From contig JANMAY010000055.1 in NCBI GenBank assembly GCA_031360095.1, positions 175-64,174 on the forward strand: 64,000 nt of DNA. Direction: 5' to 3'. Below the pieces are notes generated by a model. It was not told the origin of the DNA. It did no database searches and worked only from the letters and a program-made list of their open reading frames with translations. Made by a program: the position numbers and the translations under genes. Shown in pieces: positions 2,152 to 53,860 of this stretch. How positions within the stretch are numbered: the first letter of the stretch is position 1; each line of letters begins with the position of its first letter. Origin of the DNA: Gemmatimonadaceae bacterium (GTDB taxonomy: Bacteria > Gemmatimonadota > Gemmatimonadetes > Gemmatimonadales > Gemmatimonadaceae).

Positions 2152-4361
<2,210 letters not shown>

Positions 4362-4365
<4 letters not shown>

Positions 4366-5801
4366 TGTATTCGGGAATTGGCTGATCGAGGAATGAATTC
4401 GGTGACTCGTGTGCTCCGGCGCGCGGCCTCGCGAACGGACACCCCCGCTGGCAAGTCTCCCAGCGCGCGCGCCTGCACGAGCAGGTTGCCGAGCACCGTG
4501 GCTTCTTCCGGCCCGGCCAGCACCCGCCGGTCGCATGCATCCGCAGTGAGCTGATTGAGCAGCGTGTTGCGCGCACCGCCGCCCACGATGTGGACATCTG
4601 TGATCGGCGATGCGATGAGGCCTTCAAGTTCGCGCAGCGTCGATGCGCAACTCTCGGCAAGGCTGTCGAGGATCAGCCGCACCAACGCGCCGCGGCCTTC
4701 GCCGAGCGTGATCCCGTTCACGACGCACGCGGCGTGGATCTTCTCGGCCATGCCACCGCGCTCACCGAACTGGGGCGCGTCGAGATCGAGCGTCCCGTTG
4801 GACGTCGGGGCATCGGTCGCCTCGGCGAACAGCACGTCGTACGAGGGACGTTCGCCCTTCTCCGCCCACTCTCGACAGCACTCTTCGAGCACCCACATTC
4901 CCGTGCGATTCTTGAGGAAGCGAATCGTGCCGTCCAGACCGGACTCGTTCGTAAAACCTGCCTCACGAGCATGGTCGCTTGTGATCGGCGCATCGAGCTC
5001 CGCACCCACCAGCGACCACGTTCCGGAGCTCACGAACGCCCATCCGCTTTCCCCAGAAGCGGGCACCGCGGCAACGGCGGCCGCCGTGTCGTGCGCACAT
5101 GTCGCGATCACGAGCGGCGCGCTCGCATATCCATCCGGAAGCGCGCCAGGCACCGCCGCGCCAAGGGTCGTGCCGGCCGGTACGATGCGCGGCCAGCGCG
5201 ACGGATCGTCACCGATGGCGCATATCAGTGGCTCGGACCACTCGCCCGTGCGCACGTTCATGAGCTGCGTCGTGCTCGCCATGGTGCGCTCCGCCACCGC
5301 CTTTCCGCTGAGCAAAAACAGGAAGTATTCGGCGATGGTCAGCCGGGTCGCCGTTCGCGCGAGCAGCGCCGGCTCGTCTTCGACATCGGCCACGATCTGC
5401 GAGATCGTGTTCAGCTCGAGAAACTGAATGCCCGTTTGCCCATAGAGCGCCTTGGCGCCACCGGCGAGACGAGTGGCCGTGGCGAGTCGCCCCTGTGTCC
5501 GCGAATCGCGATAGGCATACGGGCGGCGCACCGCGACGCGCTGTTCGTCGAGCGGCACATAATCGACGGCCCACGAATCAACCGAGATCGAACGCAGCGA
5601 GGGCACGGTACTCAGCGCCTCGCTGACGCCGCGCCGGATCTCCGTCCACATCGTCGCGATGTCCCAGTACAGATGCCCCTTCTCCTCGAGGATTGGCGTC
5701 CGAAAGCGATGGACTTCCTGTGTGCGCATGCAGTCGCCATCCCATGTGCCAACGATCGCGCGCCCGCTCGATGCGCCGAGATCGATGGCCAGATAGCTCA
5801 T
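4362..5801 (-). CDS. rhaB: Rhamnulokinase (FGGY carbohydrate kinase family)
   Basis: 479 aa. N-terminal motif MSYLAIDLGASSGRAIVG and C-terminal FGGY motif HIVGGGARNTLLNQLTADA. It sits between the isomerase and aldolase genes with ATGA overlaps on both sides. Confidence 0.85.
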
Positions 5802-7060
5802 TCCGTGCGCTCACTTGCCTTGCGGGCGCGGTATCCCGATGCGCGAAAGGCGGCGATCGGATCGAGTGCTCCGCCGGCGCGGCGTCGCGCTTCGGCGACA
5901 AGCGGTCGCGCGTCGGCCTCGAACGCGTCCTTGAGCGTGCGCTCCGCCATCAGCACGTCACCCGCATCCTGATACTCCGCGAGCGCTCGGCGATCGACGA
6001 GCAGCGCCTTCGCGTACGCGAGCTGCAGCTGATCGACCGTCTGCAGCAACGCTTCGATTGGATCCTTGATGTTGTGGCTCTGGTCGATCATGTACGCCGG
6101 CCGAAATCCCGCGAGCTTCTCGCGCTCGGCGAGCACGAGCTCGTGGAATACGAGAAACAATCCGTATGGCTTGATGGATCCAGCCGTGAGATCGTCGTCG
6201 CCGTACTTCGAGTCGTTGAAGTGAAAGCCGCCGAGCTTTCCTGCGCCCAACAGCCGCGCCACGACGAGCTCGATGTTCGTGTTTGGCAGATGATGGCCGA
6301 GGTCCACGAGACACTGGGCGCGGTCGCCGAGCGACTGCGCGAGCAAGAGCGAGGAGCCCCAGTCCTGCACCACGGTGGCGTAGAAGGCCGGCTCGTACGG
6401 TTTGTGTTCAGTGAACAGTCGCCATGTGCTCGGCAGCGATGCATACACGTCGCGGAGACAGTTGAGCACGCGGTCGAAGCTTCCGCGCAGCGACATCTGG
6501 CCGGGATAATTCGAGCCGTCCGCCAGCCAGATGGAAATGGCGTCCGACCCCAGCGCCTGACCGATTTCGATCACATGCTGATGGTGTTCCACGGCTTGGC
6601 GACGCACGGCGGGATCGGGATGGCTGAACGATCCGAGCTTGTAGCTCAACGGCTGGCCCGGCTGATCCTGGAACGTGTTCGAGTTCACGGCATCGAACGC
6701 CAACCCGAGCAGGGCCGCCTGCTCGCGCAGCGCGGCGGCGTCTTCGGGCTCGTCCCACGGGATGTGCAGCGATACGCGCGGTGTCGCGCCGGTGAGCTGA
6801 TGGACGACCGCCGCATCTTCGAGCTTTTCGGCGATCGTGCGTGGCTCACCGGGACCGGCGAATCGGCCGAACCTGGTACCGCCGGTGGTGAAGGCCCACG
6901 AGGGCAGCGCCACCTCGAACTTTCGAACGGCGACGATGCACTCGTCCATCTGCACGCCCCGTCGCGCGAGCCGATCCGACAGCGCAGCGAGATCGTCCTC
7001 GTGCGCGTGAAGCGTCCGCGCGTCTGCGGTGGTCTCGATGGTCGGACGACTGAATGTCAT
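5798..7060 (-). CDS. rhaI: L-rhamnose isomerase (xylose-isomerase-like TIM barrel, RhaI type)
   Basis: ORF 5798-7102 trimmed to the ATG at 7058-7060 (MTFSRPTIETT...), giving 420 aa. It resembles the ~430-aa Pseudomonas stutzeri/actinobacterial-type rhamnose isomerases. It is the first gene of the rhaB-rhaEW-ABC operon. Confidence 0.75.
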   Translation of the reverse strand: MTFSRPTIETTADARTLHAHEDDLAALSDRLARRGVQMDECIVAVRKFEVALPSWAFTTGGTRFGRFAGPGEPRTIAEKLEDAAVVHQLTGATPRVSLHIPWDEPEDAAALREQAALLGLAFDAVNSNTFQDQPGQPLSYKLGSFSHPDPAVRRQAVEHHQHVIEIGQALGSDAISIWLADGSNYPGQMSLRGSFDRVLNCLRDVYASLPSTWRLFTEHKPYEPAFYATVVQDWGSSLLLAQSLGDRAQCLVDLGHHLPNTNIELVVARLLGAGKLGGFHFNDSKYGDDDLTAGSIKPYGLFLVFHELVLAEREKLAGFRPAYMIDQSHNIKDPIEALLQTVDQLQLAYAKALLVDRRALAEYQDAGDVLMAERTLKDAFEADARPLVAEARRRAGGALDPIAAFRASGYRARKASERTE

Positions 7061-7094
7061 GCCCCGAGGGATGGAGGGCTGGCGCCACGACGTA

Positions 7095-7110
7095 GTGCAC
7101 AAATGTGCAG
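7095..7110. promoter_or_regulatory. Putative operator: near-perfect 16-bp palindrome GTGCACAAATGTGCAG
   Basis: Read directly from the sequence. It lies 35-50 nt upstream of the rhaI start, in the 131-bp gap between rhaI and the TonB receptor gene. A perfect copy, GTGCACAAATGTGCAC, occurs at 11882-11897. Confidence 0.55.
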
Positions 7111-7191
7111 CAACTGTCGTTTGTTCAGCTCAACGTTACGCGCCCCGTGTCCCGGCCACAAGCACGACCGGCCATGTCGCCGGCCGCGCCG

Positions 7192-9330
7192 TCAGCGGTT
7201 CGACTCCAGTCCCACGCTCAGGACGCGGCCCGCCGCCGGGTAGTAGTAGATGAGCGGGCTGCCAGCGGGATCGGGGAAACCCGTCGAGTTGTACTGTGTT
7301 CCGAACAGGTTGCGGACGTCGAGCGTGAGCCTCGTGCGGCCAACCGCGTGCGAGACCCGCGCGTCGAGCTGCGTATGGCCAGCCAACGTGAGCGTATTCT
7401 GGTCGTTCAGGAACGAGTCCCCAATGCTGGTCACGCTGAGCGATGCCGAGAGACCCGTGAGCGACGAGCGAGTGATGCCACTGGCGATCACGCGACGCGG
7501 AATCGCCTTCAGCTGCCGCCCACTGTCGGCAAGATCGCGAGACGTCACACGTTGGAGCGTGAGGTTGGCGAACGCGCTGAGGGACTTCGGTCCGTCGAGC
7601 GTGAGTCCCGTTTCCACACCGCGGTGCCGGCTCGACCCAAGATTCACGTAGCGGAACTTCTTGAGATCGAAATCCAGCTCGTTGCGCATGTCGGTCTGAT
7701 AGGCCGAGACACTCACGCGCGCATCGAGCTCGCTGGGCACAACTTGGACGCGATGGTACGCCCCAATCTCCACGTTCTTGCCGTACTGCGCCTCGAGCGC
7801 GGGGTTGGACGTCGAGATGGCAAAGGGAGGAAAGGGCACGGGCGTACGGCGCTGGTCGAACAGCTGATCCATCGTTGGCGCCTTGAACGACTGGCCGACC
7901 GTCACGTAGGCGCGACCCGTCTGACGCTCGGATTCGAAATAGCGAAGGTTGATTCCCGCCTTGGGGCTGAAGGCCGATCGAAAGACATTGGTTGAAGTCC
8001 CCGTGCTGGGGGTCTGCGGCTCGTACCGATCGGTGATCCAGTCCATTCGCCCACCCAGCGAGAGGCGAAGCGCGTCGGAGAACGATCCTTCCCAGTGCGC
8101 GAAGGCCGCTGCCATCGAGCGGTGTCCTTCGCCCTTGGAGTCGAGCGCGCCCGTGGTGCCGGGCGACGACGCGTACGCGCCCGCCGGCCCAGTCACCACC
8201 TTGAAGTACTCGGACGTGAGGCGGCCCGCACCGGCATCCGTGCCGACGACAATGCTGTTGTGCAGTGCCCCGGTCGTTCCCGAGAGCTCTGTCTGCAGTG
8301 AGCCAACGATGCGATCGGATTGCAACTGCCGGTCCTTCGTGTCAGCGAACGCGGGCGAGAGAGGCAGCGTGCGCACCGCGCTCGTTCGCGACTGTTCGCC
8401 TGTGAGGTAGCCCGACACTCTGGCATGCGCGCTCACGGTGGTCGCGCCGTCCAGCGCGAGACGGTGGACGCGCTGATGGGTGTTGTCGAACCGGAAGAAC
8501 GGAGTCGCCGCGCGTGTCGACCGTCTCACGCTCGAGTCAGCGAGCGGACCTGGTTCGTCGAACGAGCGCCAATGGTTCAACGTCGACAACGTCAGGGAAT
8601 GCGCTACGCTGTTCGTGAGCGCGATCGAGCCTCCAACGCTCGCCCCTTCGCGGCGCTCGTGCGCGCGAAAGCCCGACGAGCGGCGCAGATCGCCGAATAA
8701 GCGCGCCTGATGTCCGCCAATGGGACCGCCGAGCGCGACGTTGCCCTGCGCCTGGCCAAATTCGCCGCCGGCAATGCGCCAACGCGCCAACGTGCCGTCA
8801 CGGCGCGTAATCAGGTTGATCACGCCCCCGACCGCGGCATCGCCATACAGCGGAGACGCGCCGCCACGCACGACTTCGATGGACTCGATCGCCTGAAGCG
8901 GAACGAGATCCCAGTTCACCTGTCCCGTGGCGAGCTCGGTTGACGGAACGCCGTCGATGAGCACCGTGGCGTAGTCGGTCTCGCCTCCGCCATAAAATCC
9001 GCGAACAATCAGACGCGGTGCGAGGCCGAGTCCGTCGCCCTGGAGCACGATGACACCGGGCACGTACTGCATTGCGTCGGCGACTGTAGTTGCCGGCAGC
9101 CGCCGAAGCGCTTCGCCAGATAGACGCGTCACCGCAGCGGAGGACGTGGTGAGCGGCGCATCGACGCGGCCCGCGGTGACGACGATCGCATCGAGCGTCT
9201 GCGAGCGCGTGCTGTCGCGGATGCCCGTCGAGTCGCTCGTGCGCCGCGGCGACTGCGCGCCCGTCGCGAACGCCGGCAACATGATCAAAGTCAGCGCGAC
9301 TGCGCCGAGCGAGCGAGAACGCGCCGTCAT
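7192..9330 (-). CDS. TonB-dependent outer-membrane receptor
   Basis: ORF 7192-9360 trimmed to the ATG at 9330 (MTARSRSLGAVALTLIMLPAFATGAQS signal). A plug region (LDAIVVTAGR..., VADAMQYVPGVIVLQ, RGFYGGGETDYATVLIDGVP) is followed by a long beta-barrel region. The start overlaps the GH31 stop (ATGA at 9327-9330). Confidence 0.85.
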   Translation of the reverse strand: MTARSRSLGAVALTLIMLPAFATGAQSPRRTSDSTGIRDSTRSQTLDAIVVTAGRVDAPLTTSSAAVTRLSGEALRRLPATTVADAMQYVPGVIVLQGDGLGLAPRLIVRGFYGGGETDYATVLIDGVPSTELATGQVNWDLVPLQAIESIEVVRGGASPLYGDAAVGGVINLITRRDGTLARWRIAGGEFGQAQGNVALGGPIGGHQARLFGDLRRSSGFRAHERREGASVGGSIALTNSVAHSLTLSTLNHWRSFDEPGPLADSSVRRSTRAATPFFRFDNTHQRVHRLALDGATTVSAHARVSGYLTGEQSRTSAVRTLPLSPAFADTKDRQLQSDRIVGSLQTELSGTTGALHNSIVVGTDAGAGRLTSEYFKVVTGPAGAYASSPGTTGALDSKGEGHRSMAAAFAHWEGSFSDALRLSLGGRMDWITDRYEPQTPSTGTSTNVFRSAFSPKAGINLRYFESERQTGRAYVTVGQSFKAPTMDQLFDQRRTPVPFPPFAISTSNPALEAQYGKNVEIGAYHRVQVVPSELDARVSVSAYQTDMRNELDFDLKKFRYVNLGSSRHRGVETGLTLDGPKSLSAFANLTLQRVTSRDLADSGRQLKAIPRRVIASGITRSSLTGLSASLSVTSIGDSFLNDQNTLTLAGHTQLDARVSHAVGRTRLTLDVRNLFGTQYNSTGFPDPAGSPLIYYYPAAGRVLSVGLESNR

Positions 9331-11741
9331 GGCGCGAGGGGTTGTCGGGTTACACGCCAACGCACTGTACCATTGAAAGGGTCACCCACGACGCGACCAT
9401 TCGCGACGCGCACTGTCCGAACGTCCCCGGTGTCACCGGATGTCACCTCGCCAGAGGACGTCGTACTATCCGTGGAGAATACACGAAGCTCGAGCTGATT
9501 CCAATTGATCGAACCCGTACTTTGCGCGAGCCCAGCGTGGGCGATCGCCGCATGGTTCCGCACGAGGAGGACGATCGGGATCTGCCCTGCCTCGATCTCG
9601 TGCCACCGAGCGCCTTCGTAGGTGCGGCCCGACTGGTAATCAATCCAGGTGCCGGGCGGAGCGTACACGCGGCGCCGCGAGATGCTGTCGGCGAACAGCG
9701 GCGCCACGAGCAGATCGGTTCCGAACAAGTACTCGTCTTCGATCGTCCACGAGGTTGGATCGTGCGGGAAGTCGAAAAAGAGCGCCCGGAGCATGGGATG
9801 TCCGAGCGCCGCGCTTCGCTTCGCCTGAGCAAGGATGTACGGCATCAGCGTGTACTTGAGCTCGATCGCCCGCCGGAAGTCCGCCATGAACGCCTCGTCG
9901 TATTCCCACGGCTCGCGCGGCGGCGCACCATGCGTGCGCGTGTGCGACGTCAGCGCACCGAACGGCGTCCATCGCCGATACAAGTCGCGCGGCGCACGAT
10001 TGACGAATCCGCCGATGTCATGACTCCAGAAGCTGAAGCCCGACAGTCCCATGGAGAGACCGGACCGGAGCGTCGCCGCCATGGCACTGTTGGTGTTTTC
10101 GGCGTCACCGCCCCAGTGCAGCGGATACCGCTGGCTGCCGGCCCAGGCGCTGCGCGCCCAGATGATCCCCTCGCGCGCGCCGTTCGCCTCGCGCGTCACG
10201 TCGTACACGGCCTGATTGTATCGCACGGGATACAGATTGTGCTCGTACCATCCCGAGCGCCCTGAATGGTAGATGCCCGTTGCCGGCGCATTCTCACCAA
10301 AGTCCGCCTTGATGGCGGAGACGCCCATCCTCAGCAGCTCGGCAAGCTTGCCGCGATACCAGCGTACCGCCGCGGGATTGCTGAAGTCGAGCACAGCATC
10401 CTCGGCCGGCAGACGACCGCCCTCGTTGCGCACGTGGTACCCATTGTCCACCACCTCGCGCCAAATCGTGTTCTTCGGCGTGAAGTACGTGTACTGCCAC
10501 AGGCTCACGCGAAAGCCCAGCGCGCGGAGATCGCTGAGCATGCCGCGCGGATTGGGAAAACGACTGGCAGAAAACTGAAAGTCGCCTCGCCAGTCAGTTT
10601 CGAACCAGCCCGTGTCGAGATGAAGGACATCGGCGGGAATGCGATGCTGGCGCATGAGTCGCGCGACCTCACGCGCCTCCGCCTCCGTCTTGTAGGTGAT
10701 GCGACTCATCCACAGGCCGAACGACCATAGCGGCGGCACGGGACTGCGCCCGGTAATCGCGGTGTACTCGGAAACGACATCCTTCGGTTCGCCGAGGAAG
10801 ACGAAGAGATCGAGCTGCTCATCGCCGGAGTAGATCGCGTGGTGGGAGTCGAACTCGGCACCGACGTCAAAGGTCACGGGAGCGCTCGTGTGCACGAACA
10901 TCCCGTAGCCGCGGCTGCTCAGGAAAAATGGAACGGCTTTGTACTGCAGCTTGCTCTGTGCACCCATCGCGTCACGCAGATACGCCACGATGCGCTGACC
11001 GCGCTTGTCGAGCCGCGTGAAGGATTCTCCCATGCCGAATATCTTCTCGTCTGGCGCCAGCTCGAATACCGCGGCGGTGCTGCGTCCCAGGTCCCGCGCG
11101 CGCCGCACGAACGAGAACGGGACGTATGGTGTGAACGAGTTCGGCTGACCGAGCCGCTGTGTGCGCGTGAGCAGGCGACCGGACGAGTCGTAGAGCTCGA
11201 GCGACCACGGATTCTTCACGAGGCGCACTCGGCCGTAGTCGCTCGTCCAGGTGATCGTGCTGTCGCGTGTTTCGGCGCGCCAGGCGCTGCTGGTTGGCAC
11301 CGGTCCAGCGAGCATGATGGAAGCGCTGTCCGCATCGAATGGCATGTTGCGCGTCGACATCCGGATGCGCAGCGATCGGGCGCTCACGAAGTCGATGCGG
11401 AACGGGAGCACGGGATCGCGGTCGTACTCCGAGCCGGGAAATTCCGTGGCGTTCCCACGCGTGAACCCGCGGTCGACTTTGTTGAAATTCAGCCCCGGCT
11501 GCCTGACGTACCGGTCCCACTGCAGCGTGCCTCGGCCGGTGTTCGCGTCGAACTGCGCGACACGGTTGGCCATGAAAAACGTCTGCTCGGGCGCGAGGAA
11601 GTCTTGACCCACGTCGATCGGATCACCGGCGACCTGCGCCAGCGCCGATGAGGCGAGTGGAAGTGCGCACGCGAGCGCGAGCAGCGTCGCGCCGGCGACC
11701 CGCCACAGCCGGCGTGTGGAGAAAGTGTCAGTGAGCGTCAT
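9327..11741 (-). CDS. Glycoside hydrolase family 31 (YicI-like alpha-xylosidase/alpha-glucosidase), secreted
   Basis: ORF 9327-11768; the ATG at 11741 gives MTLTDTFSTRRLWRVAGATLLALACALPLASSALAQ. GH31 hallmarks are present: HLDTGWF, LWQYTYF, the IKADFGE nucleophile region, and WGGD. Confidence 0.85.
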   Translation of the reverse strand: MTLTDTFSTRRLWRVAGATLLALACALPLASSALAQVAGDPIDVGQDFLAPEQTFFMANRVAQFDANTGRGTLQWDRYVRQPGLNFNKVDRGFTRGNATEFPGSEYDRDPVLPFRIDFVSARSLRIRMSTRNMPFDADSASIMLAGPVPTSSAWRAETRDSTITWTSDYGRVRLVKNPWSLELYDSSGRLLTRTQRLGQPNSFTPYVPFSFVRRARDLGRSTAAVFELAPDEKIFGMGESFTRLDKRGQRIVAYLRDAMGAQSKLQYKAVPFFLSSRGYGMFVHTSAPVTFDVGAEFDSHHAIYSGDEQLDLFVFLGEPKDVVSEYTAITGRSPVPPLWSFGLWMSRITYKTEAEAREVARLMRQHRIPADVLHLDTGWFETDWRGDFQFSASRFPNPRGMLSDLRALGFRVSLWQYTYFTPKNTIWREVVDNGYHVRNEGGRLPAEDAVLDFSNPAAVRWYRGKLAELLRMGVSAIKADFGENAPATGIYHSGRSGWYEHNLYPVRYNQAVYDVTREANGAREGIIWARSAWAGSQRYPLHWGGDAENTNSAMAATLRSGLSMGLSGFSFWSHDIGGFVNRAPRDLYRRWTPFGALTSHTRTHGAPPREPWEYDEAFMADFRRAIELKYTLMPYILAQAKRSAALGHPMLRALFFDFPHDPTSWTIEDEYLFGTDLLVAPLFADSISRRRVYAPPGTWIDYQSGRTYEGARWHEIEAGQIPIVLLVRNHAAIAHAGLAQSTGSINWNQLELRVFSTDSTTSSGEVTSGDTGDVRTVRVANGRVVGDPFNGTVRWRVTRQPLAP

Positions 11742-11855
11742 GGGCGGCGACGGAGGACAAATGAGCACGCACAGCTCGAATGTGTGCCCGGTGCGCTCTA
11801 TTGACTACCCCGCTGACTCTCGCGCGCGTGGAGTGGAGCGAGTAGTCTGGGTGCT

Positions 11856-14348
11856 ATGCGCCATCATCACGCGACGATATCGTGCACAAATGTGCACCCA
11901 CGTACCATTGCTACAATTGCCCTCGCCATCTCGGCAATGTGGCCGGCTTCACTGGCGGCGCAGCAAGCAACCAGCGTCCACGTCCAGTGCTCCGCGAGCC
12001 CGCCGGCGGGCACTCTCGCCATCGGTCCCAGCCTCCTCTACAACGCCGAACGCGGTTACGGATTCCGTGCTCCGCTCGCCGGCGCTTCGGCAACCGAGTG
12101 TGAGAGCGACCGGCCATTCGTGTTGGACGTCGCCCTGCCGGAAGGCGACTACGACGTCACAGTCACTTTTGGCGCTGCCGAGCGCGCGTCGAATACGACA
12201 GTGCGCGCTGAGTCGCGACGATTGATGCTCGAGGCGGTGGGGACGCGCGCCGGTGAGGTCGCGACCCGCACGTTCACGGTCAACGTGCGCACGCCCGCCA
12301 TTCCAGGCGGTGACTCCGTGCGGCTCAAATCACGCGAGATCGGCTCGGCCACGTGGGACGACCGCCTCAGCCTCGAGTTCACTGGGGAGCATCCCGCCCT
12401 GCGCGAGGTATGCATCGCTCCGGCACGCCGTCCGGTCACGATCTTTCTCGCCGGCAACTCCACCGTGGTGGATCAAGCGGCTGAGCCATGGGCGGCGTGG
12501 GGACAGATGATACCGCGATTCTTTCGCCCTGGAGCCATTGTCGTGGCCAATCACGCCGAGTCGGGCGAGACGCTGAAGGCATTCATTGGAGAGCGTCGGT
12601 TGGCCAAAGTGCTGAGCACGATGAAGAAGGGCGACTACCTCTTCATCGAGTTCGCGCACAACGATCAGAAGCCCGGGTCGTCCTACCTGGACCCATTCAC
12701 GACGTACAAGCAGCACCTCAAGCAGTTCATTTCGGAGGCGCGCTCGCGCGGGGCGAACCCCGTGCTGGTTACGTCGATGCATCGACGGCGATTCGACTCC
12801 ACCGGTGTGATCATCAACACGCTCGGCGACTATCCGGAGGCCGTGCGGCAGACTGCTGCTGAAGAGCGCGTGCCGCTCATCGATCTCAACGCCATGAGCA
12901 AGCAGTTTTACGAAGCGCTCGGACCCATCACGTCCATGAAGGCGTTCGTGCACTATCCCGCGGGTACGTATCCCAATCAGACCGCGGAGCTCAAGGACGA
13001 TACGCATTTCAGCAACTACGGGGCATACGAGCTGGCACGGATGGTCGTCGAGGGAATCAAGACGGCGGATGCGAGGCTCGCGCGTCACCTGCTGCCGAAC
13101 TTGCCGCGGTTCGATCCAGCGCATCCCGATGACGTCGATCGGTTCGCGCTTCCTCCGAGCCCGGTCGCCTGGCCCGCGACGGTCGCAGCGAGTCCACCGG
13201 TACTCGAAACCGGCGCTGGCCCGATGCCGCTGGAGTGGATCGATCAGGCAACGGGCCATCGTGTGATGCGACTCTCGCGGCGCGAGGGAGCCAACACGAG
13301 CTTCTACTTCCACAACAATCCGTTCCTGCCGTCGGCAGACGACTCCGGATCGACGATGGTGTTCTCCGGCACCACGGCTATCGGACGCCAGCTCTTCGCG
13401 GTCGATCTTCGCACATTCGCCATCCGGCAGCTCACCGAGCGCACCGGCGGCGTCTCGGGCGAGATCATCGCGCCTCGCCATCGCGAGGTGGTGTATCAGC
13501 GGCGCGACAGCGTGTTCGCGACCCACGTCGACACGCGCGCGACGCGTCTCGTTCACGTGCTGCCGCCCGAGCTGCACGGCAGCATCTCCACGTTGAATGC
13601 GGACGAAACCTTGCTCGCCGGCGTGAGCGCGGGACAGGAAGCGCGGGACATCCTCGCGAAGTACCCGGCAAAGTCCGAGTTCTTCAACCGCATCTTCGAC
13701 GCGCACGTGCCGCATGCGCTGTTCACCGTCGATCTGCGAACGGGCGTGGTCCGCACCGTCCACCAGGAGAAGACCTGGCTTGGCCACGTGCAGTTCTCTC
13801 CGACCGATCCTGCGCTGCTCATGTTTTGCCACGAAGGACCGTGGCATCTGCTCGATCGCATCTGGACCATCGATGTCCGCGATTCCACCGTGCGGCAGAT
13901 CCATCATCGCACGATGGAGCGCGAGATCGCGGGTCATGAGTTCTGGAGCCCCGACGGCCGCACGATCTGGTACGACCTGCAGCTGCCACGCGGAGTGACG
14001 TTTTTTCTTCAGGGTGCCGACGTCACGACTGGTCGCACCGTGCGCTATCAGATGTCACCAGACGAATGGTCGATTCACTTCAACGTGACGGCGGACCAGC
14101 GGCTGTTCGCCGGCGACGGCGGAGATTCGACGCAGGTCGCGCGGGCAAAGAATGGGCGCTGGCTCTACCTGTTCCGTCCGGAGGGTGAGCGCCTCCTGTC
14201 CGAGCGGTTGGTCGACATGCGGCGTCACAACTATCGGCTCGAGCCGAACGTGCACTTCACACCGGATGGGAAGTGGGTAGTGTTTCGCGGCAACTTCGAG
14301 GGGGAGGCGCAGGTGTACGCCGTGGAAGTCGTACGCGCGATGCAATAA
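11856..14348 (+). CDS. Secreted fusion protein: N-terminal beta-rich module + SGNH/GDSL rhamnogalacturonan acetylesterase-like domain + oligogalacturonide lyase (PL22)-like beta-propeller
   Basis: 830-aa ORF. The SGNH block I motif is IFLAGNSTV, with FIEFAHNDQK as the later block. The C-terminal ~400 aa resemble oligogalacturonate lyase (EWIDQATGHRVMRLSRREGANTSFYFHNNPF..., HEFWSPDGRTIWYD). The start is uncertain: ATG at 11856 or in-frame GTG at 11892. Confidence 0.7.
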   Translation: MRHHHATISCTNVHPRTIATIALAISAMWPASLAAQQATSVHVQCSASPPAGTLAIGPSLLYNAERGYGFRAPLAGASATECESDRPFVLDVALPEGDYDVTVTFGAAERASNTTVRAESRRLMLEAVGTRAGEVATRTFTVNVRTPAIPGGDSVRLKSREIGSATWDDRLSLEFTGEHPALREVCIAPARRPVTIFLAGNSTVVDQAAEPWAAWGQMIPRFFRPGAIVVANHAESGETLKAFIGERRLAKVLSTMKKGDYLFIEFAHNDQKPGSSYLDPFTTYKQHLKQFISEARSRGANPVLVTSMHRRRFDSTGVIINTLGDYPEAVRQTAAEERVPLIDLNAMSKQFYEALGPITSMKAFVHYPAGTYPNQTAELKDDTHFSNYGAYELARMVVEGIKTADARLARHLLPNLPRFDPAHPDDVDRFALPPSPVAWPATVAASPPVLETGAGPMPLEWIDQATGHRVMRLSRREGANTSFYFHNNPFLPSADDSGSTMVFSGTTAIGRQLFAVDLRTFAIRQLTERTGGVSGEIIAPRHREVVYQRRDSVFATHVDTRATRLVHVLPPELHGSISTLNADETLLAGVSAGQEARDILAKYPAKSEFFNRIFDAHVPHALFTVDLRTGVVRTVHQEKTWLGHVQFSPTDPALLMFCHEGPWHLLDRIWTIDVRDSTVRQIHHRTMEREIAGHEFWSPDGRTIWYDLQLPRGVTFFLQGADVTTGRTVRYQMSPDEWSIHFNVTADQRLFAGDGGDSTQVARAKNGRWLYLFRPEGERLLSERLVDMRRHNYRLEPNVHFTPDGKWVVFRGNFEGEAQVYAVEVVRAMQ
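11882..11897. promoter_or_regulatory. Putative operator: perfect 16-bp palindrome GTGCACAAATGTGCAC
   Basis: Read directly from the sequence. It lies in the divergent region between the GH31/TonB operon (start 11741, minus strand) and the esterase-lyase gene (plus strand). It matches the site at 7095-7110 in 15 of 16 positions. Confidence 0.55.
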
Positions 14349-18226: not shown

Positions 18227-18286
18227 TCGCACGTGCCAACATCGCGTCGGCCGCGAGCGTACTGCTTAATCGACCCCCATCACACC

Positions 18287-21200
18287 ATGACCGTGTCTTC
18301 TCAGCGTCTGGCAATCACGTGCGCCCTCGTTCTCGCGTCGGCGTCCTCTCTCCGCGCGCAGAACCCCGCGCAGAATCCCGCTCCGGCGCCCACGCCAATT
18401 CCCTCGAGCGGTCCGCTGCCGCGCAACGCCGCGCGTGAACAGGATTTGCTCCGGCAGACGAAAGCGCCCGACGGCTTCACCGTCACGGTCTTCGCCGGCG
18501 CGCCGGTGGCGGAGTATCCCACCTGCCTGGCGAATTCGCCCGACGGCGCACTCTTCGTCTGCGTCGACCCGAATCTTTCTCTCTCGGTCCACAAGGGCAT
18601 CGGCCGCATCGTCCGGCTCGTGGATGACGATCGCGACGGACGCGCCGACCGCTACACCGTGTTCGCGCAGATGGACAGCCCGCGCGGGGCGTTCTTCGAT
18701 GGGTCGACGCTGTATGTCATGCACCCGCCTTTTCTCACCGCGTATCGTGATACCAACGGCGACGGGATCGCCGATGAATCCGATGACCTCGTGAAGGGAC
18801 TGGGGTTCGACCTCGACTTTCGCGGCGCCGACCACACGACCAACCAGATCACGATGGGGATCGATGGCTGGATCTACGTCGCGGTCGGGGACTACGGCTA
18901 TCAAAAGGCCGTCGGCAAGGACGGCGCGACGATCGGCAACCGCGGCGGCAGTGTGGTGCGCGTGCGACCGGATGGCACGGGCCTCGAGATCTACGCCGTG
19001 GGCACCCGCAATATCTACGATGTGGCGCTCGATCCCTTTCTGCACGTGTTCACGCGCGACAACACCAATGACGGCGACGGCTGGGACACGCGGCTGCACT
19101 ACATCCCGGCGTTGGCGCACATGGGCTATCCCATGTACTACAAGAACTTCGCTGGCGAACACATGCCGTCGCTGCACGACTACGGCGCCGGCGCAGGAAC
19201 GGGCGCGGTGTGGGTGCAGGATCCCGGATTTCCCGCCGGCTACGACAACGTTCTGTATACCGGCGACTGGACCATGAACAAGGTCTTTCGCAACGCGACG
19301 ACGTCCAAGGGCGCGAGCTTCGACGTGCAGCAGGACCAGTTTCTTTCGATACCGCGTCCATCGGACATGGTCATGGATGCGAACTCGAACATGTACGTTG
19401 CAACGCTCATTGGCGGCACGTTCACCTACGTCGGCGATACGGTGGGCGGCGTGGTGCGCGTGAGCTATCCCGCCACATCGGGCGCAGCCGCGCCGCTGTT
19501 GTCTGCACTCGGCAACAGTGAGCTGATGGACGCGCTCGTTGGCCCGTACGCGGAACGCAGGCTTCAAGCGCAGCGCGAGCTGCTGCGTCGCGCGCGGCCG
19601 GGCAGACTTCGCGCCTGGTGGACCCGACGGTCCATCGTCGGCCGGCTTTCCGAGCTCACGCTCGACGCGAGGCGCCCCGACTATGCGCGCGTCGCCGCCA
19701 TGTTCACGCTGAAGCAGATTGCCGGGGTTTCCTCGCACGACGTGCTGTTGCGCGTTGCCGACGATCCAGCGATGCGCGCCCTGGCGCTGCATGCACTCGC
19801 CGACGACACTCGGCAGCTTGCCGGGGTGAGTACGAGCGTGTTCGTGCGTGCGCTGTCCGACCGCGATCCACGCGTACAGCTTCAGGCAATCGAAGGGCTC
19901 GTCCGACTCGGCGCTCATGATGCGGCAGCGTCAATCGTTCCGCTGACGGGAAGCGCGGATGCGGCAATCGCGCACGTCGCGGTGAAGGCCCTCGTCGCTC
20001 TCGATGCCGGTGCGGCGGCGCTCGCCGTCCTGGATACCGCGACACCCGACGTGCGCCGCGGCGCATTGCGTGTACTCGAGCAGATGCACAATGGAGCGTC
20101 CGTCAGCGGATTGATCGCGCGCTTTCGCACGACGAATGACGCGTCGGCTCGGCGTGATGTGCTCGCGGCGCTCGCGCGTCTGTACAACCGCGAAGCGGCG
20201 TGGAAGGGCGAGTGGTGGACGACGCGCCCCTCGTTCCTCGGCCCGTACTTCGCGCCCACACCGTGGGAGGAGAGCGCCACGATCCGTCCCGTGCTGCGCG
20301 ACGCGCTCCTCGCGGCGAACGGCGCCGACCTTGAAACGCTCGCGACTGAGCTCGCGCGCAACCGTGTGTTGCCGCAGGGAGCGAAGTCGATTGTCATCGC
20401 CCTGGCAGCACCGAATGATCAATCGCGCACCGAGGTGATCGACGCGCTCGTCGGCACATCGCATCTCGAGACCGCGGCGATCGCCATGCTTCCGTCGCTC
20501 GACAAGCGGAGTCCGGTGCTGCATTCCGCCGTCGCGCAGTTGCTCGCCGGTGAGACCTCAGTCGGCGAGCAGCTGCTCCCCCTGGTCAGAACCGGCGCGC
20601 TCGACTCCACCCTCGACGCCGAAATTCGCGGACGGCTCCTCAACTCCGTCGCACAGATGTCCGATTCGTCGGCGCGCGCCACATCGACTGAGCTGTTCGT
20701 CCGCACCGTGCCCGGTCCGGCAACACCAGCGCCGGTCGAGGCGGCATGGCGTCGGTACGTCGGCGACAGACGTCGCGGAGCGGAGCTCGACCAGTGGGTT
20801 CGTCTGGCACAAACGGGCGACCCGGCGCAGCGCACGCTCGCATTCTCCGTGCTCGCGCAGGGAATTCGCGGACAGCGCGTTCCGCCCGCGATTCGCAACA
20901 GAGTCGTACCGGTGATCGACGCGGCGTGGTTCGATGCAGCAGCGACGCCGAGTCTCGTGCAGGCGATCCGCGTGATGAAGCTGGAGAGTCAGTACGCCAA
21001 CCATCTGACGGCGTACGACCAGGCGCTCGTCGCGCAGGAGAATGCGCGAAAGGGAATCGTCGTGGTGAACGCACTCAAAGCCCATCCCAAGGAATGGATT
21101 CAGCTCTGGAACGGGCGCGATCTTCAGAATTGGGACATCAAGTTCAAGGGGCGCCCGGTCAACGAGAATTACAACGATACGTTCCGCGCCGAGAGCGGAT

Positions 21201-22312
21201 TGTTGAAGGTGCGATACGACAAGTGGAACGGCTTCAAGGGAGAATTTGGGCACATCTTCACCCGGCGTCCGTTCTCGAATTACATCGTCGCGGCGGAGTA
21301 TCGCTTCGTCGGCAACCAGGTCGCGGGCGCCGGCCCGCAGTACGCCTGGGCACTCCGCAACAACGGCATCATGATCCAGTCGCAGTCCGCGGCGAGTATG
21401 GGGATCGATCAGGATTTTCCCATCTCGCTCGAGGTGCAGCTGCTCGGCGGACTCGGCACCGGTCCGCGCTCGACGGCCAACCTGTGCACTCCGGGCACGA
21501 ACGTGCACTTTGGCGATTCACTGATCACGCAGCACTGCATCAACTCGATTTCGAGGACCTACGACGGCGATCAATGGGTCCGCGTCGAAGCCCTGGTGCT
21601 CGGCGACTCGATCATCAAGCACATCGTGAATGGCGACACGGTGATGACGTACCGCAAGCCGGAAATGGGCGGCGGCAGCGCGAACAACACGGCGCCGGGT
21701 GTGCTCGTTCCCGGCAAGCCTCTCACCGAGGGCTACATCACTCTACAGGCTGAGACGGCGGAGATCGATTTCCGGAAGGTTGAGCTCCTCGAGCTCAAGG
21801 GTTGCATGAATCCGAAGGCAAAGGAGTACAGACGTCACTTCATCGTGTCGGATCCGAGTGCGTGCAGCAGCGCTGCCGGCGAGCAGACCAAGGCCGTAGC
21901 CGAAACGGCTCCGTCGCCGGGGGCAGCAGCGCCACGCTCCGATGCCGAAGGACGACGTGTGTACTCGACGACATGCGTCGCGTGCCATCAGGTGAGCGCG
22001 CTGGGACTGCCTCCGCAGTATCCGCCGCTCGCGGGAAGCGAGTGGGTTACGGGCGACGAGCGCCGGTTGCTGCGCCTCATCCTGCACGGGCTCGTCGGGG
22101 AGGTGAGCGTCGCCGGCGAGACGTTCAACGGGGCAATGCCTGGCTGGGGACCGATGTTGAAGGACGCGGAGATCGCCGCCGTCGCGACGTACATTCGCGG
22201 CAACTTTGGAAACAAGGCCGCGCCGGTGAGCGCGGCGGCAGTTGCGCGCGTGCGCAAGGATTTTGCAACGCGCACGACGCCATGGACTGCCGCAGAACTG
22301 ACAAGACCTTGA
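18287..22312 (+). CDS. Multidomain secreted protein: PVC-type 'membrane-bound dehydrogenase' beta-propeller + HEAT repeats + DUF1080 (3-keto-disaccharide hydrolase-like) + C-terminal c-type cytochrome
   Basis: ORF 18233-22312; the ATG at 18287 gives MTVSSQRLAITCALVLASASSLRAQ. The N-terminal propeller resembles glucose/sorbosone dehydrogenase-like proteins of Planctomycetes/Verrucomicrobia. A HEAT-like region is rich in leucine and alanine. The DUF1080 block runs WIQLWNGRDLQNWDIKF...GYITLQAETAEIDFRKVEL. The heme site CVACH is encoded at 21974-21988. Confidence 0.75.
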   Translation: MTVSSQRLAITCALVLASASSLRAQNPAQNPAPAPTPIPSSGPLPRNAAREQDLLRQTKAPDGFTVTVFAGAPVAEYPTCLANSPDGALFVCVDPNLSLSVHKGIGRIVRLVDDDRDGRADRYTVFAQMDSPRGAFFDGSTLYVMHPPFLTAYRDTNGDGIADESDDLVKGLGFDLDFRGADHTTNQITMGIDGWIYVAVGDYGYQKAVGKDGATIGNRGGSVVRVRPDGTGLEIYAVGTRNIYDVALDPFLHVFTRDNTNDGDGWDTRLHYIPALAHMGYPMYYKNFAGEHMPSLHDYGAGAGTGAVWVQDPGFPAGYDNVLYTGDWTMNKVFRNATTSKGASFDVQQDQFLSIPRPSDMVMDANSNMYVATLIGGTFTYVGDTVGGVVRVSYPATSGAAAPLLSALGNSELMDALVGPYAERRLQAQRELLRRARPGRLRAWWTRRSIVGRLSELTLDARRPDYARVAAMFTLKQIAGVSSHDVLLRVADDPAMRALALHALADDTRQLAGVSTSVFVRALSDRDPRVQLQAIEGLVRLGAHDAAASIVPLTGSADAAIAHVAVKALVALDAGAAALAVLDTATPDVRRGALRVLEQMHNGASVSGLIARFRTTNDASARRDVLAALARLYNREAAWKGEWWTTRPSFLGPYFAPTPWEESATIRPVLRDALLAANGADLETLATELARNRVLPQGAKSIVIALAAPNDQSRTEVIDALVGTSHLETAAIAMLPSLDKRSPVLHSAVAQLLAGETSVGEQLLPLVRTGALDSTLDAEIRGRLLNSVAQMSDSSARATSTELFVRTVPGPATPAPVEAAWRRYVGDRRRGAELDQWVRLAQTGDPAQRTLAFSVLAQGIRGQRVPPAIRNRVVPVIDAAWFDAAATPSLVQAIRVMKLESQYANHLTAYDQALVAQENARKGIVVVNALKAHPKEWIQLWNGRDLQNWDIKFKGRPVNENYNDTFRAESGLLKVRYDKWNGFKGEFGHIFTRRPFSNYIVAAEYRFVGNQVAGAGPQYAWALRNNGIMIQSQSAASMGIDQDFPISLEVQLLGGLGTGPRSTANLCTPGTNVHFGDSLITQHCINSISRTYDGDQWVRVEALVLGDSIIKHIVNGDTVMTYRKPEMGGGSANNTAPGVLVPGKPLTEGYITLQAETAEIDFRKVELLELKGCMNPKAKEYRRHFIVSDPSACSSAAGEQTKAVAETAPSPGAAAPRSDAEGRRVYSTTCVACHQVSALGLPPQYPPLAGSEWVTGDERRLLRLILHGLVGEVSVAGETFNGAMPGWGPMLKDAEIAAVATYIRGNFGNKAAPVSAAAVARVRKDFATRTTPWTAAELTRP

Positions 22313-25322: not shown

Positions 25323-25346
25323 TCTCTTGCCAAATTTGGCAAGAGA
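25323..25346. promoter_or_regulatory. Perfect 24-bp palindrome TCTCTTGCCAAATTTGGCAAGAGA (operator or RNA hairpin)
   Basis: Read directly; all 12 base pairs around the centre at 25334/25335 are complementary. It lies in the 175-bp gap between the GH95 stop (25377) and the start of the unassigned glycosidase (25201). It has an AT-rich core in a GC-rich genome and no U-tract on either side. Confidence 0.5.
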
Positions 25347-39659: not shown

Positions 39660-39980
39660 CTAGTCAACATGGAACACCTCTCGCAGCGCCACGCTGCGAG
39701 GGCTGTCGTCCGGATTGGTCGGCATGAGATCGCGCATGTGCGACCACCACCGTTTGCACACGTCGGTGCGCGCGATGGCGTCCCACCGCGCTTCGTCCTC
39801 GACCTCCACGTAGCCGAACAAACTACCGTCGCTCTCGTCGAGGAAGATGGAATAGCGGTGCGCACCGTGCGCGCGCAGCACGTCCTCCAGCTCGGCCCAG
39901 ATGGGATTGTGCCGACGTGCGTATTCCTCGCGGCTGCCGGCGTAGACGGCCATCCGGAAAGCCTTTCGCATCGGGGTCAT
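39660..39980 (-). CDS. rhaM: L-rhamnose mutarotase
   Basis: ORF 39660-40100 trimmed to the ATG at 39980, giving 106 aa. The sequence [49 protein letters not shown]...[10 protein letters not shown] matches the RhaM/YiiL family pattern and size. Confidence 0.85.
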
Positions 39981-39996
39981 CAGTTCAGGCTCTGAG

Positions 39997-41103
39997 CTAC
40001 TGCCGCCCGATGCCGAACTGATCACCCGCCTGCACCGGACGGCCGTCGTCGAACACGATCTCGAGTAGCTTCTCGCTCTGCACCGGCTTCCCGTTCTCAT
40101 CCGCCAACGTGGTCACGACGCGCTTGCGCCTGACGTCGATGATCTCACCAGACGACGGAATGGCAAACCGTCCGTCGATGGTGAACGTGACCCAGCCCGG
40201 TTGGTCGCGCACCACGAAGCTGTGGATCAATCGCGGCGGCATCATGGTGTTGTCGAACACGTGCACTCGGCTATTGGCACCATCACACACCCACACCTCG
40301 CGCTCGTCCGGGGTGAGGCCAACACCATGACTGGGACAGCCGTGGCGCTTCACCGGTCCCTTCTCGAACCCCGGTACCTCAACGCGATGCAGCACCGCGC
40401 CCGTGCGCAGATCGCCGATCTCGAAGCCGAGCAGCTCGTTGACGTTCACGTAGCACCGGCCGCGTACACCAACGGTGAACGGTCGAATGACGTTGCCGAA
40501 TGGGCCGATCTCACGCACTATCTCGCGTGTGCTCGTGTCGACCACGCGCAGTAGCGGCGACCGGAGACCTGCAAGGTAGGCATACCTCCCGTCAGCGGAA
40601 CACAGAGTGTTGTGTGCACCGGAGTTCGGCACGATGCGCGACGTGACGTCGCCCGTGGCAGCGTCCACCACGTTCCAGTGCGGCCCTTCGAGCGAGGGGA
40701 GATAGATGGTGCGTCCATCTGGCGTCAACGCCATACGATCGCATCCGCCGTCGTACTCACGATTCCACAGCACCGCGTCCGTCACGAGATCCAGACACAC
40801 CATCCGCTTGATGGTCGTCACGTACACTCGGCCCGTAGCTGCGCTTGCGCAGATGCCCTTGACGTTCTCCGGCGGTGCGCCAACAGGCGCATTCGGCGTC
40901 GGGATTCGGCGCACAAAGCGAAAGTTGTCGTCGATGTCGTAGACGAGAATGCCGATGCCGCCCCACTCTACGTAATTCCGTATTCCCGGCTCGGCGACGT
41001 AGAGCAGACGTCGCTGCGCGAGACGCGGACGCAGCGCATGCACGCCGAACAATGCGACGCTAGTGCGCGCAACGAAGGTTCGGCGGGAGATTGGTTCCGT
41101 CAT
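39997..41103 (-). CDS. Secreted beta-propeller protein (YncE/YVTN/lactonase-like)
   Basis: ORF 39997-41595 trimmed to the ATG at 41103 ([20 protein letters not shown], Tat-like), giving 368 aa. It has repeated propeller-blade patterns ([32 protein letters not shown]). It sits 26 nt after the upstream gene and 16 nt before rhaM. Confidence 0.55.
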
Positions 41104-43835: not shown

Positions 43836-43940
43836 CGCGACGAATATGCTTCGCTCTCGCCGCCGCGATAGGCCGAACCGGGCGTGTCTCTTGCACTCGG
43901 CTAGCACATTCGCGACTCATCACCTCTGGCCGGAGGCATC

Positions 43941-52834: not shown

Positions 52835-53317
52835 TTACGCCGCCTTTCTGGTCGAGATGGGGAGCGGAACCAACTCCGCCGCACGGACCCGACCAAAGAC
52901 TCGCCGCTCAACGATCGCATCGACTGAGAATGCGCCCGCGCCCGTCACGCCAAGAGCTGTGGCCATGGCGAGGAGTGCGAGGGGGAACTCGAATCCGCCG
53001 GGGTTGAAGAATCCCGCCTTGAGATGCACAGCCAGGATGGCTACGACCATGGTGCTGGAGAGTCCGAACGCGGCGAAGCGCGTCAGGAGGCCGAGGATGA
53101 TCGCGAGCCCGCCGAAGAGCTCGACGAGGGCGACGAAGGGTCCGAGCAGGCCTGGTATGGGCATGCCCATCTGCGCGAATGCGCCAGAGACGCCGGCGAA
53201 GCCATAGACGAACAACTTTTGCCCCCCGTGCATGACGAAGGTGGCGCCAAGGACGACGCGGAGGATTGTGAGGCCGATGGTGACTTGGCGCGCGGAGGGA
53301 GAACGGAAGATCGACAT
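52835..53317 (-). CDS. DoxX family membrane protein
   Basis: 160 aa with four predicted transmembrane helices. The characteristic DoxX stretch is LRVVLGATFVMHGGQKLF...VELFGGLAIILGLLTRFAAF. Confidence 0.8.
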   Translation of the reverse strand: MSIFRSPSARQVTIGLTILRVVLGATFVMHGGQKLFVYGFAGVSGAFAQMGMPIPGLLGPFVALVELFGGLAIILGLLTRFAAFGLSSTMVVAILAVHLKAGFFNPGGFEFPLALLAMATALGVTGAGAFSVDAIVERRVFGRVRAAELVPLPISTRKAA

Positions 53318-53361
53318 GAGAGGGTGCCTCGAGTGAGTGGTGATTCGGTGTCGCGATACTT

Positions 53362-53375
53362 GGTGTTATAACATC
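53362..53375. promoter_or_regulatory. Putative MarR operator GGTGTTATAACATC (contains the perfect palindrome TGTTATAACA)
   Basis: Read directly. It lies in the AT-rich 75-bp gap between the marR stop and the doxX start. It matches the site upstream of marR (53872-53885) in 13 of 14 positions. Confidence 0.5.
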
Positions 53376-53392
53376 TATTAGTTCAAAAAAAC

Positions 53393-53860
53393 CTAATCTT
53401 TGTCTCGCGCCTTGGTGAGCAAATCGATCAATGAGCGCAACTGAGCGTCGGTAAGGTGCCCGAGCTGCGCTTCGTGCAACTCGCTGACAGGCTGGTCGAG
53501 CTCGTCCAGCAGTCGAAGCGCCCTGGCGGTGATCCGGGTGGAAACGAGCCGCCGATCGTCGCTGTCTCTCGAGCGCAACACCAGCCCCGCCTCCTCCATC
53601 CGGTCGAGCAGGCGTGTCATGTCCGGCATGCGCGTAAGCATGCGGTCGCGCAGTGCGTTTCGACATAACCCGTCGGGTTCCGAGCCCCGAAGAATCCGGA
53701 GCACGTTGTACTGCGTGCCACTGATGCCATACGGCTTGAACAAATCTTCCATGGCATCCACGAGCGCCGTCGACGTCCGCAGCACATTCAGAAAGCACTC
53801 CTGGGAGAGGCTCGTGAACGGCTTGCTCTGGCGAAGATCACTGCGAAGCGTGGCGGGCAT
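53393..53860 (-). CDS. MarR family transcriptional regulator
   Basis: 155 aa with a winged-helix region (GISGTQYNVLRILRGSEPDGLCRNALRDRMLTRMPDMTRLLDRMEEAGLVLRSRDSDDRRLV) typical of the MarR/SlyA family. Confidence 0.85.
   Translation of the reverse strand: MPATLRSDLRQSKPFTSLSQECFLNVLRTSTALVDAMEDLFKPYGISGTQYNVLRILRGSEPDGLCRNALRDRMLTRMPDMTRLLDRMEEAGLVLRSRDSDDRRLVSTRITARALRLLDELDQPVSELHEAQLGHLTDAQLRSLIDLLTKARDKD

Follow-up and report, generated by a model that had tools for sequence, protein, structure and literature searches.

The regulator DeoR of Bacillus subtilis (PDB 8r7y and 7bhy; PMC11229326) is composed of an N-terminal helix-turn-helix (HTH) and a PF04198 phosphosugar-binding domain, and the pathway under its control is that of the deoxyribonucleosides. 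The published operator is ATTGAACAAAATTTCAATTACCAATTTACATATGTTCAA, and its left half reads TGAAC-AAAA-TTTCA (PMC11229326). This operator, that of dra-nupC-pdp, carries the half-site TTGAACA in a 5-4-5 inverted repeat and is located at -60 to -21. Like the operators described here, it is bipartite and combines a strong dimer site with a degenerate one, an arrangement expected to accommodate a tetramer. [quoted passage not shown] The B. subtilis CggR/gapA system likewise uses a tetramer on two tandem half-operators and a phosphosugar effector. The CggR operator lies in the transcribed gapA leader (+32 to +77), and the CggR gene is part of the regulated operon. CggR differs in that its DNA-binding domain is of the winged-helix subclass and its motif, CGGGAC...GTC, is unrelated to the motif described here.

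The known rhamnose regulators are the AraC-type RhaS and RhaR, the DeoR-family RhaR of Rhizobium, Bacillales, Thermotogales and Chloroflexales, and the LacI-family RhaR of Actinomycetales (PMC3870299). The published motifs are tandem repeats with a 21-bp period for the AraC type, direct repeats with a 10-11-bp period for the DeoR type and 20-bp palindromes for the LacI type (PMC3870299). These regulators govern local regulons of rha catabolism and transport, and in some lineages also rhamnose-oligosaccharide genes, as at the locus described here, whereas they differ from the present regulator and operator in both protein family and motif (PMC3870299). A SorC-type rhamnose regulator is not included in that survey, in which Gemmatimonadota are not covered and Gemmatimonas appears only in a carotenoid reference (PMC3870299), and none was found by a full-text search of the literature for SorC together with rhamnose.

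The stretch of DNA analysed here (64,000 nucleotides, hereafter the window) represents most of the 76.7-kb contig C224 of a metagenome-assembled genome of a soil Gemmatimonadaceae bacterium (4.59 Mb, 540 contigs, 65% GC, about 90% complete). The closest rhaI loci in public genomes belong to Gemmatimonadaceae. The rhamnose/rhamnogalacturonan locus occupies the left third of the window. On the minus strand, the L-rhamnose isomerase gene rhaI of the rhizobial type (5798-7060; TIGR02629, 602.6 bits) is followed by the rhamnulokinase gene rhaB (4362-5801; TIGR02627, 389 bits, with FGGY domains) and by rhaEW (2152-4365; NF006189, 1005 bits, over its cutoff), which encodes a bifunctional rhamnulose-1-phosphate aldolase/short-chain dehydrogenase. 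The likely start of rhaEW is the ATG at 4365, which overlaps the rhaB stop in an ATGA. A sugar ABC transporter follows on the same strand (1-2140), with the ATPase at 611-2140 and the start of a permease, and the operon goes on into contig C509 and, probably, C427. Upstream of rhaI, genes for a TonB-dependent receptor (7192-9330, minus strand) and a GH31 glycosidase (9327-11741, minus strand), both assigned by Pfam, overlap in an ATGA and form one unit (7192-11741). The scan of the gap between the receptor gene and rhaI detected no terminator-like site. In the opposite direction, a gene at 11856-14348 (plus strand) encodes a secreted rhamnogalacturonan acetylesterase fused to an oligogalacturonide-lyase-like propeller, according to Pfam. 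The start candidates of this esterase-lyase gene are the ATG at 11856 and the GTG at 11892. As the signal peptides of the homologues align with residues encoded from 11892, the true start should be 11892 or 11856, rather than the ATG at 11937 of the database gene call. Enzymes of the families GH78, GH95 and GH106 are encoded beyond this gene.

Several other features of the window were recorded. At 39660-40100 (minus strand), 28 kb from the rha operon, a gene encodes a homologue of L-rhamnose mutarotase (rhaM) that is extended by about 44 residues at its N-terminus, and no operator-like site was found upstream of this gene (best score, 1.4 bits). Two large proteins encoded among the glycosidases, at 18233-22312 (plus strand) and 41130-43907 (minus strand), contain DUF7133 and a cytochrome c domain together with HEAT repeats; a 3-keto-disaccharide hydrolase domain is added in one of them, and an F5/8 type C domain in the other. 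A perfect 24-bp palindrome at 25323-25346, TCTCTTGCCAAATTTGGCAAGAGA, follows the GH95 gene. It represents a different motif; the half-site, TTGCCAAA, shows no relation to the TG(A/C)ACA motif described below, and no U-tract is present.

The original prediction concerned two copies of a 16-bp palindrome, proposed as operators of a rhamnose regulon. The two 16-mers are GTGCACAAATGTGCAG at 7095-7110 and GTGCACAAATGTGCAC at 11882-11897, both in non-coding DNA. Site 1 is indeed located 35-50 nt upstream of the rhaI ATG (7060, minus strand), within the 131-bp gap from the receptor stop (7192) to rhaI. Site 2 is located between the divergent GH31 gene (start 11741) and the esterase-lyase gene (11856 or 11892). 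The 16-mer is an inverted repeat of the form 7-2-7; its centre AA is non-symmetric, so that the 16-mer is not fully self-complementary. The functional 14-bp core TGCACAAATGTGCA is identical at both sites and shows the layout TGCAC-AAAT-GTGCA, a 5-4-5 inverted repeat. The AT-rich centre, taken before as typical of dimeric repressor sites, corresponds to the 2-4-bp spacer that separates two TG(A/C)AC half-sites, and the B. subtilis DeoR operator has the same feature.

The recurrence of the 16-mer was predicted to be beyond chance, and the mismatch counts and a matrix ranking agree in excluding chance. In the window, six matches with up to three mismatches were detected, against 0.53 expected. 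In the 4.59-Mb assembly, 1, 1 and 1 sites were found at 0, 1 and 2 mismatches, and 0, 0 and 0 with the reversed control. All three are intergenic, rather than scattered in unrelated coding regions. The class with three mismatches is at background level in the assembly (14 sites against 11 in the reversed control). A symmetric weight matrix was trained on 15 sites from other genomes, with the window's own sites left out. The two window sites are the top two matches of this matrix in the assembly, at 22.8 bits each, and 0.037 such sites are expected by chance under a zero-order base-composition model. Matches scoring 15-18.4 bits occur at the chance rate in the matrix scan of the assembly. Only two sites in the genome thus stand above background, and both are located in the rhamnose/rhamnogalacturonan locus.

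The two next-best matches of the matrix, both intergenic and in the chance-rate range, were rejected as regulon members, and neither has a partner site at 18 bp. The first, at C129:4403 (TGCGCATTTGTGCA, 18.4 bits), lies upstream of a gene for an apparent dicarboxylate/amino-acid:cation symporter, as judged from its sequence. The second, at C464:3858 (CGAACAAATGTGCG, 17.6 bits), lies 146 nt upstream of a gene for a 1012-aa SusC-like TonB receptor, which is not an orthologue of the receptor of locus L105 mentioned below. Some lower-scoring matches have the form CGAAC-N4-GTTCG, for example C497:7190, C440:1960 and C313:5624. This form resembles the Gram-positive LexA (SOS) box, and at low thresholds SOS boxes may be among the sites that the matrix detects.

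The similarity of the two window sites runs 12 nt into the left flank, so that 7083-7114 and 11870-11901 (CGCcACGAcgTaGTGCAC... and CGCgACGAtaTcGTGCAC...) share 32 nt at 81% identity. The shared 12-nt flank is not conserved in relatives, and it may represent a local operator copy or extra contacts. The extended likeness could also mean that a segment was copied, in which case the two sites would be a recent local duplication, or a recurrence by chance, with no function. This explanation deserves hardly any weight. The expectation of 0.037 sites per genome is against chance, both copies are intergenic within one functional locus, the motif class is tied to a regulator family as described below, and the site is kept at rhaI in six other genomes. 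The conservation alone largely refutes it.

The conservation upstream of rhaI was found in six Gemmatimonadaceae relatives (L001-L005 and L007), with sites such as TGAACAAATGTGCA in L001, TGCACAATTGTGCA in L007 and TGAACATTTGTGCC in L003. The proposal had been made dependent on conservation in orthologous upstream regions, and for rhaI such conservation is observed. In the metagenome contig L101, a site is present in the gap between rhaI and a regulator gene. In five of the relatives, as in the window, an invariant TGAACA(G/A)A box precedes the motif by 18-19 bp. Further upstream, TTGTCA-N17-TA(c/g)nnT is found in L002, L003, L004, L005 and L007. The alignment shows this promoter-like element in L002, L003, L004 and L007, and the promoter stretch of L005 is outside the aligned part. 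In L001, the motif is present without a recognisable box or promoter element. The original reading of the palindromes as operators of a rhamnose-regulon repressor is supported by the intergenic location of the sites and by the retention of the rhaI site in the six relatives.

For site 2, an orthologous region was not found among the relatives compared. The closest homologues of the esterase-lyase are 55% identical, and one of them is from an unrelated organism of 54% GC in which the sites are absent.

The left arm of the motif is variable in the relatives (TGAACA, TGCACA, TGAGCA and CGAACA), and the right arm stays GTGC. A changing left arm with a fixed right arm is the pattern of a protein-binding site, not of an RNA stem. 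The palindromes might nevertheless act as RNA, since both are located in probably transcribed leaders and the predicted folds include a hairpin with a 6-bp stem and a 4-nt loop, which could affect stability, processing or translation. However, these folds are no more stable than those of shuffled sequence (z about -1). No Rfam match, no U-tract and no terminator-like site were found, and the changes of the left arm are not compensated in the GTGC of the right arm, so that the stem would be broken. An action as RNA is thus considered extremely improbable, and the motif is regarded below as a protein-binding site.

The motif is TG(A/C)ACA-WW-TGT(G/T)CA, a 14-bp inverted repeat. In order to search for partner sites, 38 distinct strong sites were examined at each offset. 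The mean score of a second site is -0.3 when the offset is exactly 18 bp, against about -14.5 for most other offsets. A partner of at least 8 bits is present at 18 bp in 12 of the 38 sites, and in 0-1 at other offsets, except for the 10-bp self-similarity of the motif itself. These results indicate a 32-bp operator in which 4 bp lie between two palindromes of 14 bp. One half is usually strong and the other degenerate, and the phasing is occasionally 19 bp rather than 18 bp. The 16-mer of the original prediction is thus only the strong half of a bipartite operator, which probably accommodates a tetramer rather than a single dimer.

The operator upstream of rhaI (O1) consists of the strong half TGCACAAATGTGCA at 7096-7109 (22.8 bits, joint top of the genome, at a position kept in the six relatives) and the weak half CTGTCGTTTGTTCA at 7114-7127 (4.5 bits), 18 bp from the strong half. 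The score of the weak half is reached or exceeded by about 0.1% of genome positions. The weak half includes TGTTCA, which reads TGAACA on the rhaI strand and corresponds to the conserved box (box A). The operator in the divergent region (O2) has the strong half TGCACAAATGTGCA at 11883-11896 (22.8 bits, joint top of the genome) and the candidate weak half CGTACCATTGCTAC at 11901-11914 (1.1 bits), again 18 bp apart. About 0.4% of genome positions score as high or higher than this half, which is barely above background. A further candidate, which is also a 3-mismatch match of the window scan, is located before the GH31 start at 11754-11786. It is composed of AGGACAAATGAGCA (11754-11767, 9.6 bits) and AGCTCGAATGTGTG (11773-11786, 1.9 bits), 19 bp apart. 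This pair is only suggestive of a second, weaker operator for the GH31 unit.

The original prediction stated that no regulator gene is visible in the window, and this is essentially right. The sole transcription factor found among the ORFs scanned in the window is a MarR-family regulator next to a DoxX membrane protein gene (52835-53860, minus strand), 46 kb away and unrelated to the rhamnose locus. No transcription factor gene was found next to rhaI on its upstream side in the Gemmatimonadaceae relatives compared. The cognate factor, previously left unassigned, most probably belongs to the B. subtilis DeoR subclass of the SorC family, with a gene linked to the rha operon. In the relative L002, the operon rhaI-rhaB-rhaEW-ABC transporter ends in a gene for a protein of 320 aa, the start of which overlaps the stop of the transporter gene. 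This protein has an HTH and a PF04198 sugar-binding domain, which places it in the SorC family. PF04198 was detected at E = 1e-67 to 1e-70, together with an HTH, in the regulators of L002, L010 and L011. The best solved relative of the L002 regulator is B. subtilis DeoR (8r7y, E = 2e-47), which has the same domain build. The sequence SRPTVSRLLQ is identical in the two proteins, and the wider pattern QQ.IAE.L..SRPTVSRLLQ.A...GYVQI is conserved. The best NCBIfam match is the Bacillus DeoR repressor with 241.6 bits, under the equivalog cutoff of 420, and the regulator is therefore not a DeoR equivalog. The match to CggR is weak (E = 1e-13). Orthologues are encoded divergently from rhaI in L010 (Longimicrobiales), L011 (Rhodothermaceae) and L101, and at the operon end in L086.

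In the genome of the window, the sole SorC-family sequence comprises the 145 C-terminal residues of such a regulator and is found at the very start of contig C427. The fragment is 60-71% identical to Gemmatimonadota orthologues and covers the effector domain only, since the DNA-binding half falls in an assembly gap. Breaks in the assembly divide the rha operon of this genome, as the end of C224 lies within the first permease gene and the rest of the transporter is on C509. The regulator was missed in the window as the operon is broken across contigs. According to the synteny of L002, C427 probably follows C509, and the link of the genome's own regulator to the rha operon is deduced from this arrangement. 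The lutAB genes of this genome are located elsewhere (C411, 4855-7052, after enolase), in contrast to L081-L084, in which lutABC precedes the regulator gene. Thus, the regulator gene probably follows the transporter genes, as in L002.

The lactate utilisation genes lutABC were observed after the rha operon or before the SorC regulator gene in several relatives (L001, 10912-12530; L081-L084). This location fits the conversion of rhamnose to lactaldehyde and lactate.

The association between the motif and the regulator was examined in an independent set of 44 metagenome loci. These loci encode distant members of the regulator clade (41-48% identity), and none of them was used in the training of the matrix. 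In the 300 bp upstream of the regulator genes, 17 sites were found, against 0.28 expected from the local composition, and their density is 66 times that of the remaining 399 kb of the 44 loci. The motif tracks the SorC regulator genes in 15 of the 44 loci. Such an enrichment is usually seen where a local repressor regulates its own gene through its operator. The majority of these distant loci are without rha genes, and the motif thus marks the regulator clade rather than a specificity for rhamnose. In L105 and L109, an operator of the same kind is located between the regulator gene and a divergent gene for a SusC-like TonB receptor. The genome of the window is therefore not alone in placing an outer-membrane uptake unit under the control of this regulator.

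A large subgroup of the orthologous regulators (L089-L100) has no recognisable site upstream of its own gene. In L089-L100, L102, L106 and L111, which are high-GC soil contigs, no TG(A/C)ACA site was found upstream of the regulator gene; these loci share the blocks GGTGTCAAGCTA and GGTTGCCG and a divergent gene for a secreted protein.

The matrix built from Gemmatimonadota sites was applied to the B. subtilis DeoR operator. Its halves TGAACAAAATTTCA and TTTACATATGTTCA, 22 bp apart, score 15.0 and 15.2 bits. The two systems therefore share the half-site type in addition to the regulator build, and differ in several points. The dimer sites are 22 bp apart in B. subtilis, whereas they are 18 bp, occasionally 19 bp, apart here. 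TGCAC occurs here as often as TGAAC, unlike in the DeoR half-site. No HTH residue tracking the preference for TGCAC or TGAAC was found among the regulators compared. The controlled pathway is rhamnose/rhamnogalacturonan instead of deoxyribonucleosides.

The types suggested before for the regulator were LacI, GntR and E. coli-type DeoR. A binding by one of these, by a Crp/Fnr-type protein, the sites of which have 5-4-5 symmetry, or by LexA is considered very unlikely, although the DNA-binding domain of the genome's own regulator lies outside the assembly and, at 90% completeness, another regulator could be missing. In its TGAAC-N4-GTTCA form, the motif is similar to the Gram-positive LexA box, GAAC-N4-GTTC, and some of the low-scoring genome matches (CGAAC...GTTCG) could be LexA boxes. 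The window sites, however, have GCAC where LexA needs GAAC, and they are located on sugar genes. The motif follows the SorC regulator genes in the independent loci, matches the experimentally defined DeoR operator and shows a tandem two-dimer architecture, and no regulator of another such family is adjacent in the window or in the relatives. A LacI operator was rejected as the motif, which has an AT centre and is paired in tandem, is a 5-4-5 repeat of 14 bp, whereas the LacI-type RhaR motifs are 20-bp palindromes (PMC3870299); no LacI gene was found among the window ORFs scanned or next to rhaI in the relatives. The direct repeats with a 10-11-bp period of the DeoR-family RhaR do not fit either (PMC3870299).

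In order to place the operators relative to transcription, promoters were searched for. A strict sigma-70 consensus scan detected no promoter at either site. In a loose scan, TTGTGG (7161-7156), a 17-nt spacer and TAACGT (7138-7133) form the sole TTG-N17-TAnnnT pair in the rhaI gap, and this element (7133-7161, minus strand) is the predicted rhaI promoter, according to the loose match and the equivalent element in the relatives. For the genes flanking O2, a promoter-like element was found neither in the strict scan nor in the loose TTG-N17-TAnnnT scan. O1 would start about five bases past the predicted -10 and cover about +1 to +31. This predicted position downstream of the -10 differs from that of the B. 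subtilis DeoR operator and is comparable to that of the CggR operator in the gapA leader.

Taken together, the palindromes are very likely to be the high-affinity halves of two 32-bp operators for a SorC/DeoR-type tetrameric repressor that controls the rhamnose and rhamnogalacturonan genes. We infer binding and repression from the motif, its architecture and its position in the sequence. O1 (7096-7127) and O2 (11883-11914) would each be bound by a tetramer (dimer of dimers) of the SorC-family repressor. The repressor would be encoded at the 3' end of the operon rhaI-rhaB-rhaEW-ABC transporter-regulator and would thus be part of the regulated operon, as is CggR. As O1 is located just downstream of the predicted promoter, the bound repressor would block rhaI initiation or promoter escape. 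O1 could also act as a roadblock to read-through from the GH31/TonB-receptor unit, since no terminator-like site was found in the gap. O2, in the region between the divergent GH31/TonB-receptor unit and the esterase-lyase gene, overlaps the start region of the latter, and the weaker candidate before the GH31 start may provide control of the GH31/receptor unit. In this way, the uptake and catabolism of rhamnose and the breakdown of rhamnogalacturonan would come under common control. The obvious effector candidate, by analogy with the family, is L-rhamnulose-1-phosphate, the product of RhaB. This compound, or a near intermediate, would bind to the effector domain and release the tetramer, resulting in induction.

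The same SorC-type protein might act as an activator or a dual regulator, or O2 and the weak site on the GH31 side might be bridged by one tetramer into a DNA loop of about 129 bp. Some SorC-family members, such as Klebsiella SorC, are reported to act both as activator and as repressor. No promoter could be placed at O2, the 9.6-bit site is 129 bp from O2, and the B. subtilis DeoR tetramer bridges two DNA-binding events (PMC11229326). On the other hand, O1 is located directly past a conserved promoter-like element, which is the typical position of a repressor site, and DeoR and CggR of B. subtilis are both repressors. Activation or looping is therefore regarded as unlikely, and repression is preferred.

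The mechanism of a repressor on a bipartite operator is familiar, whereas a SorC-type regulator for rhamnose is not among the published types. We consider it rather probable that an eighth type of rhamnose regulator, so far undescribed, operates in Gemmatimonadota and apparently also in Rhodothermia. This would be a SorC-family RhaR of the Bacillus DeoR lineage, with 32-bp operators phased by 18 bp and not 22 bp, that couples rhamnose catabolism to TonB-receptor genes and secreted rhamnogalacturonan-degrading genes. It would add one more protein family to the published non-orthologous types of rhamnose regulator. If this is true, the 18-bp phasing implies a differently twisted tetramer-DNA geometry. 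With its spacing 4 bp shorter, the pair would be a naturally occurring variant of the DeoR tetramer-operator complex of known structure, and could serve to test the adaptation of SorC tetramers to the geometry of their operators. For metagenomes, the matrix together with the 14-4-14 rule offers a means of annotating the regulons of the regulator clade. In Gemmatimonadota, which are abundant in soil, hardly any gene regulation has been characterised, and the operator-regulator pair would provide an entry point to their sensing of sugars from plant cell walls.
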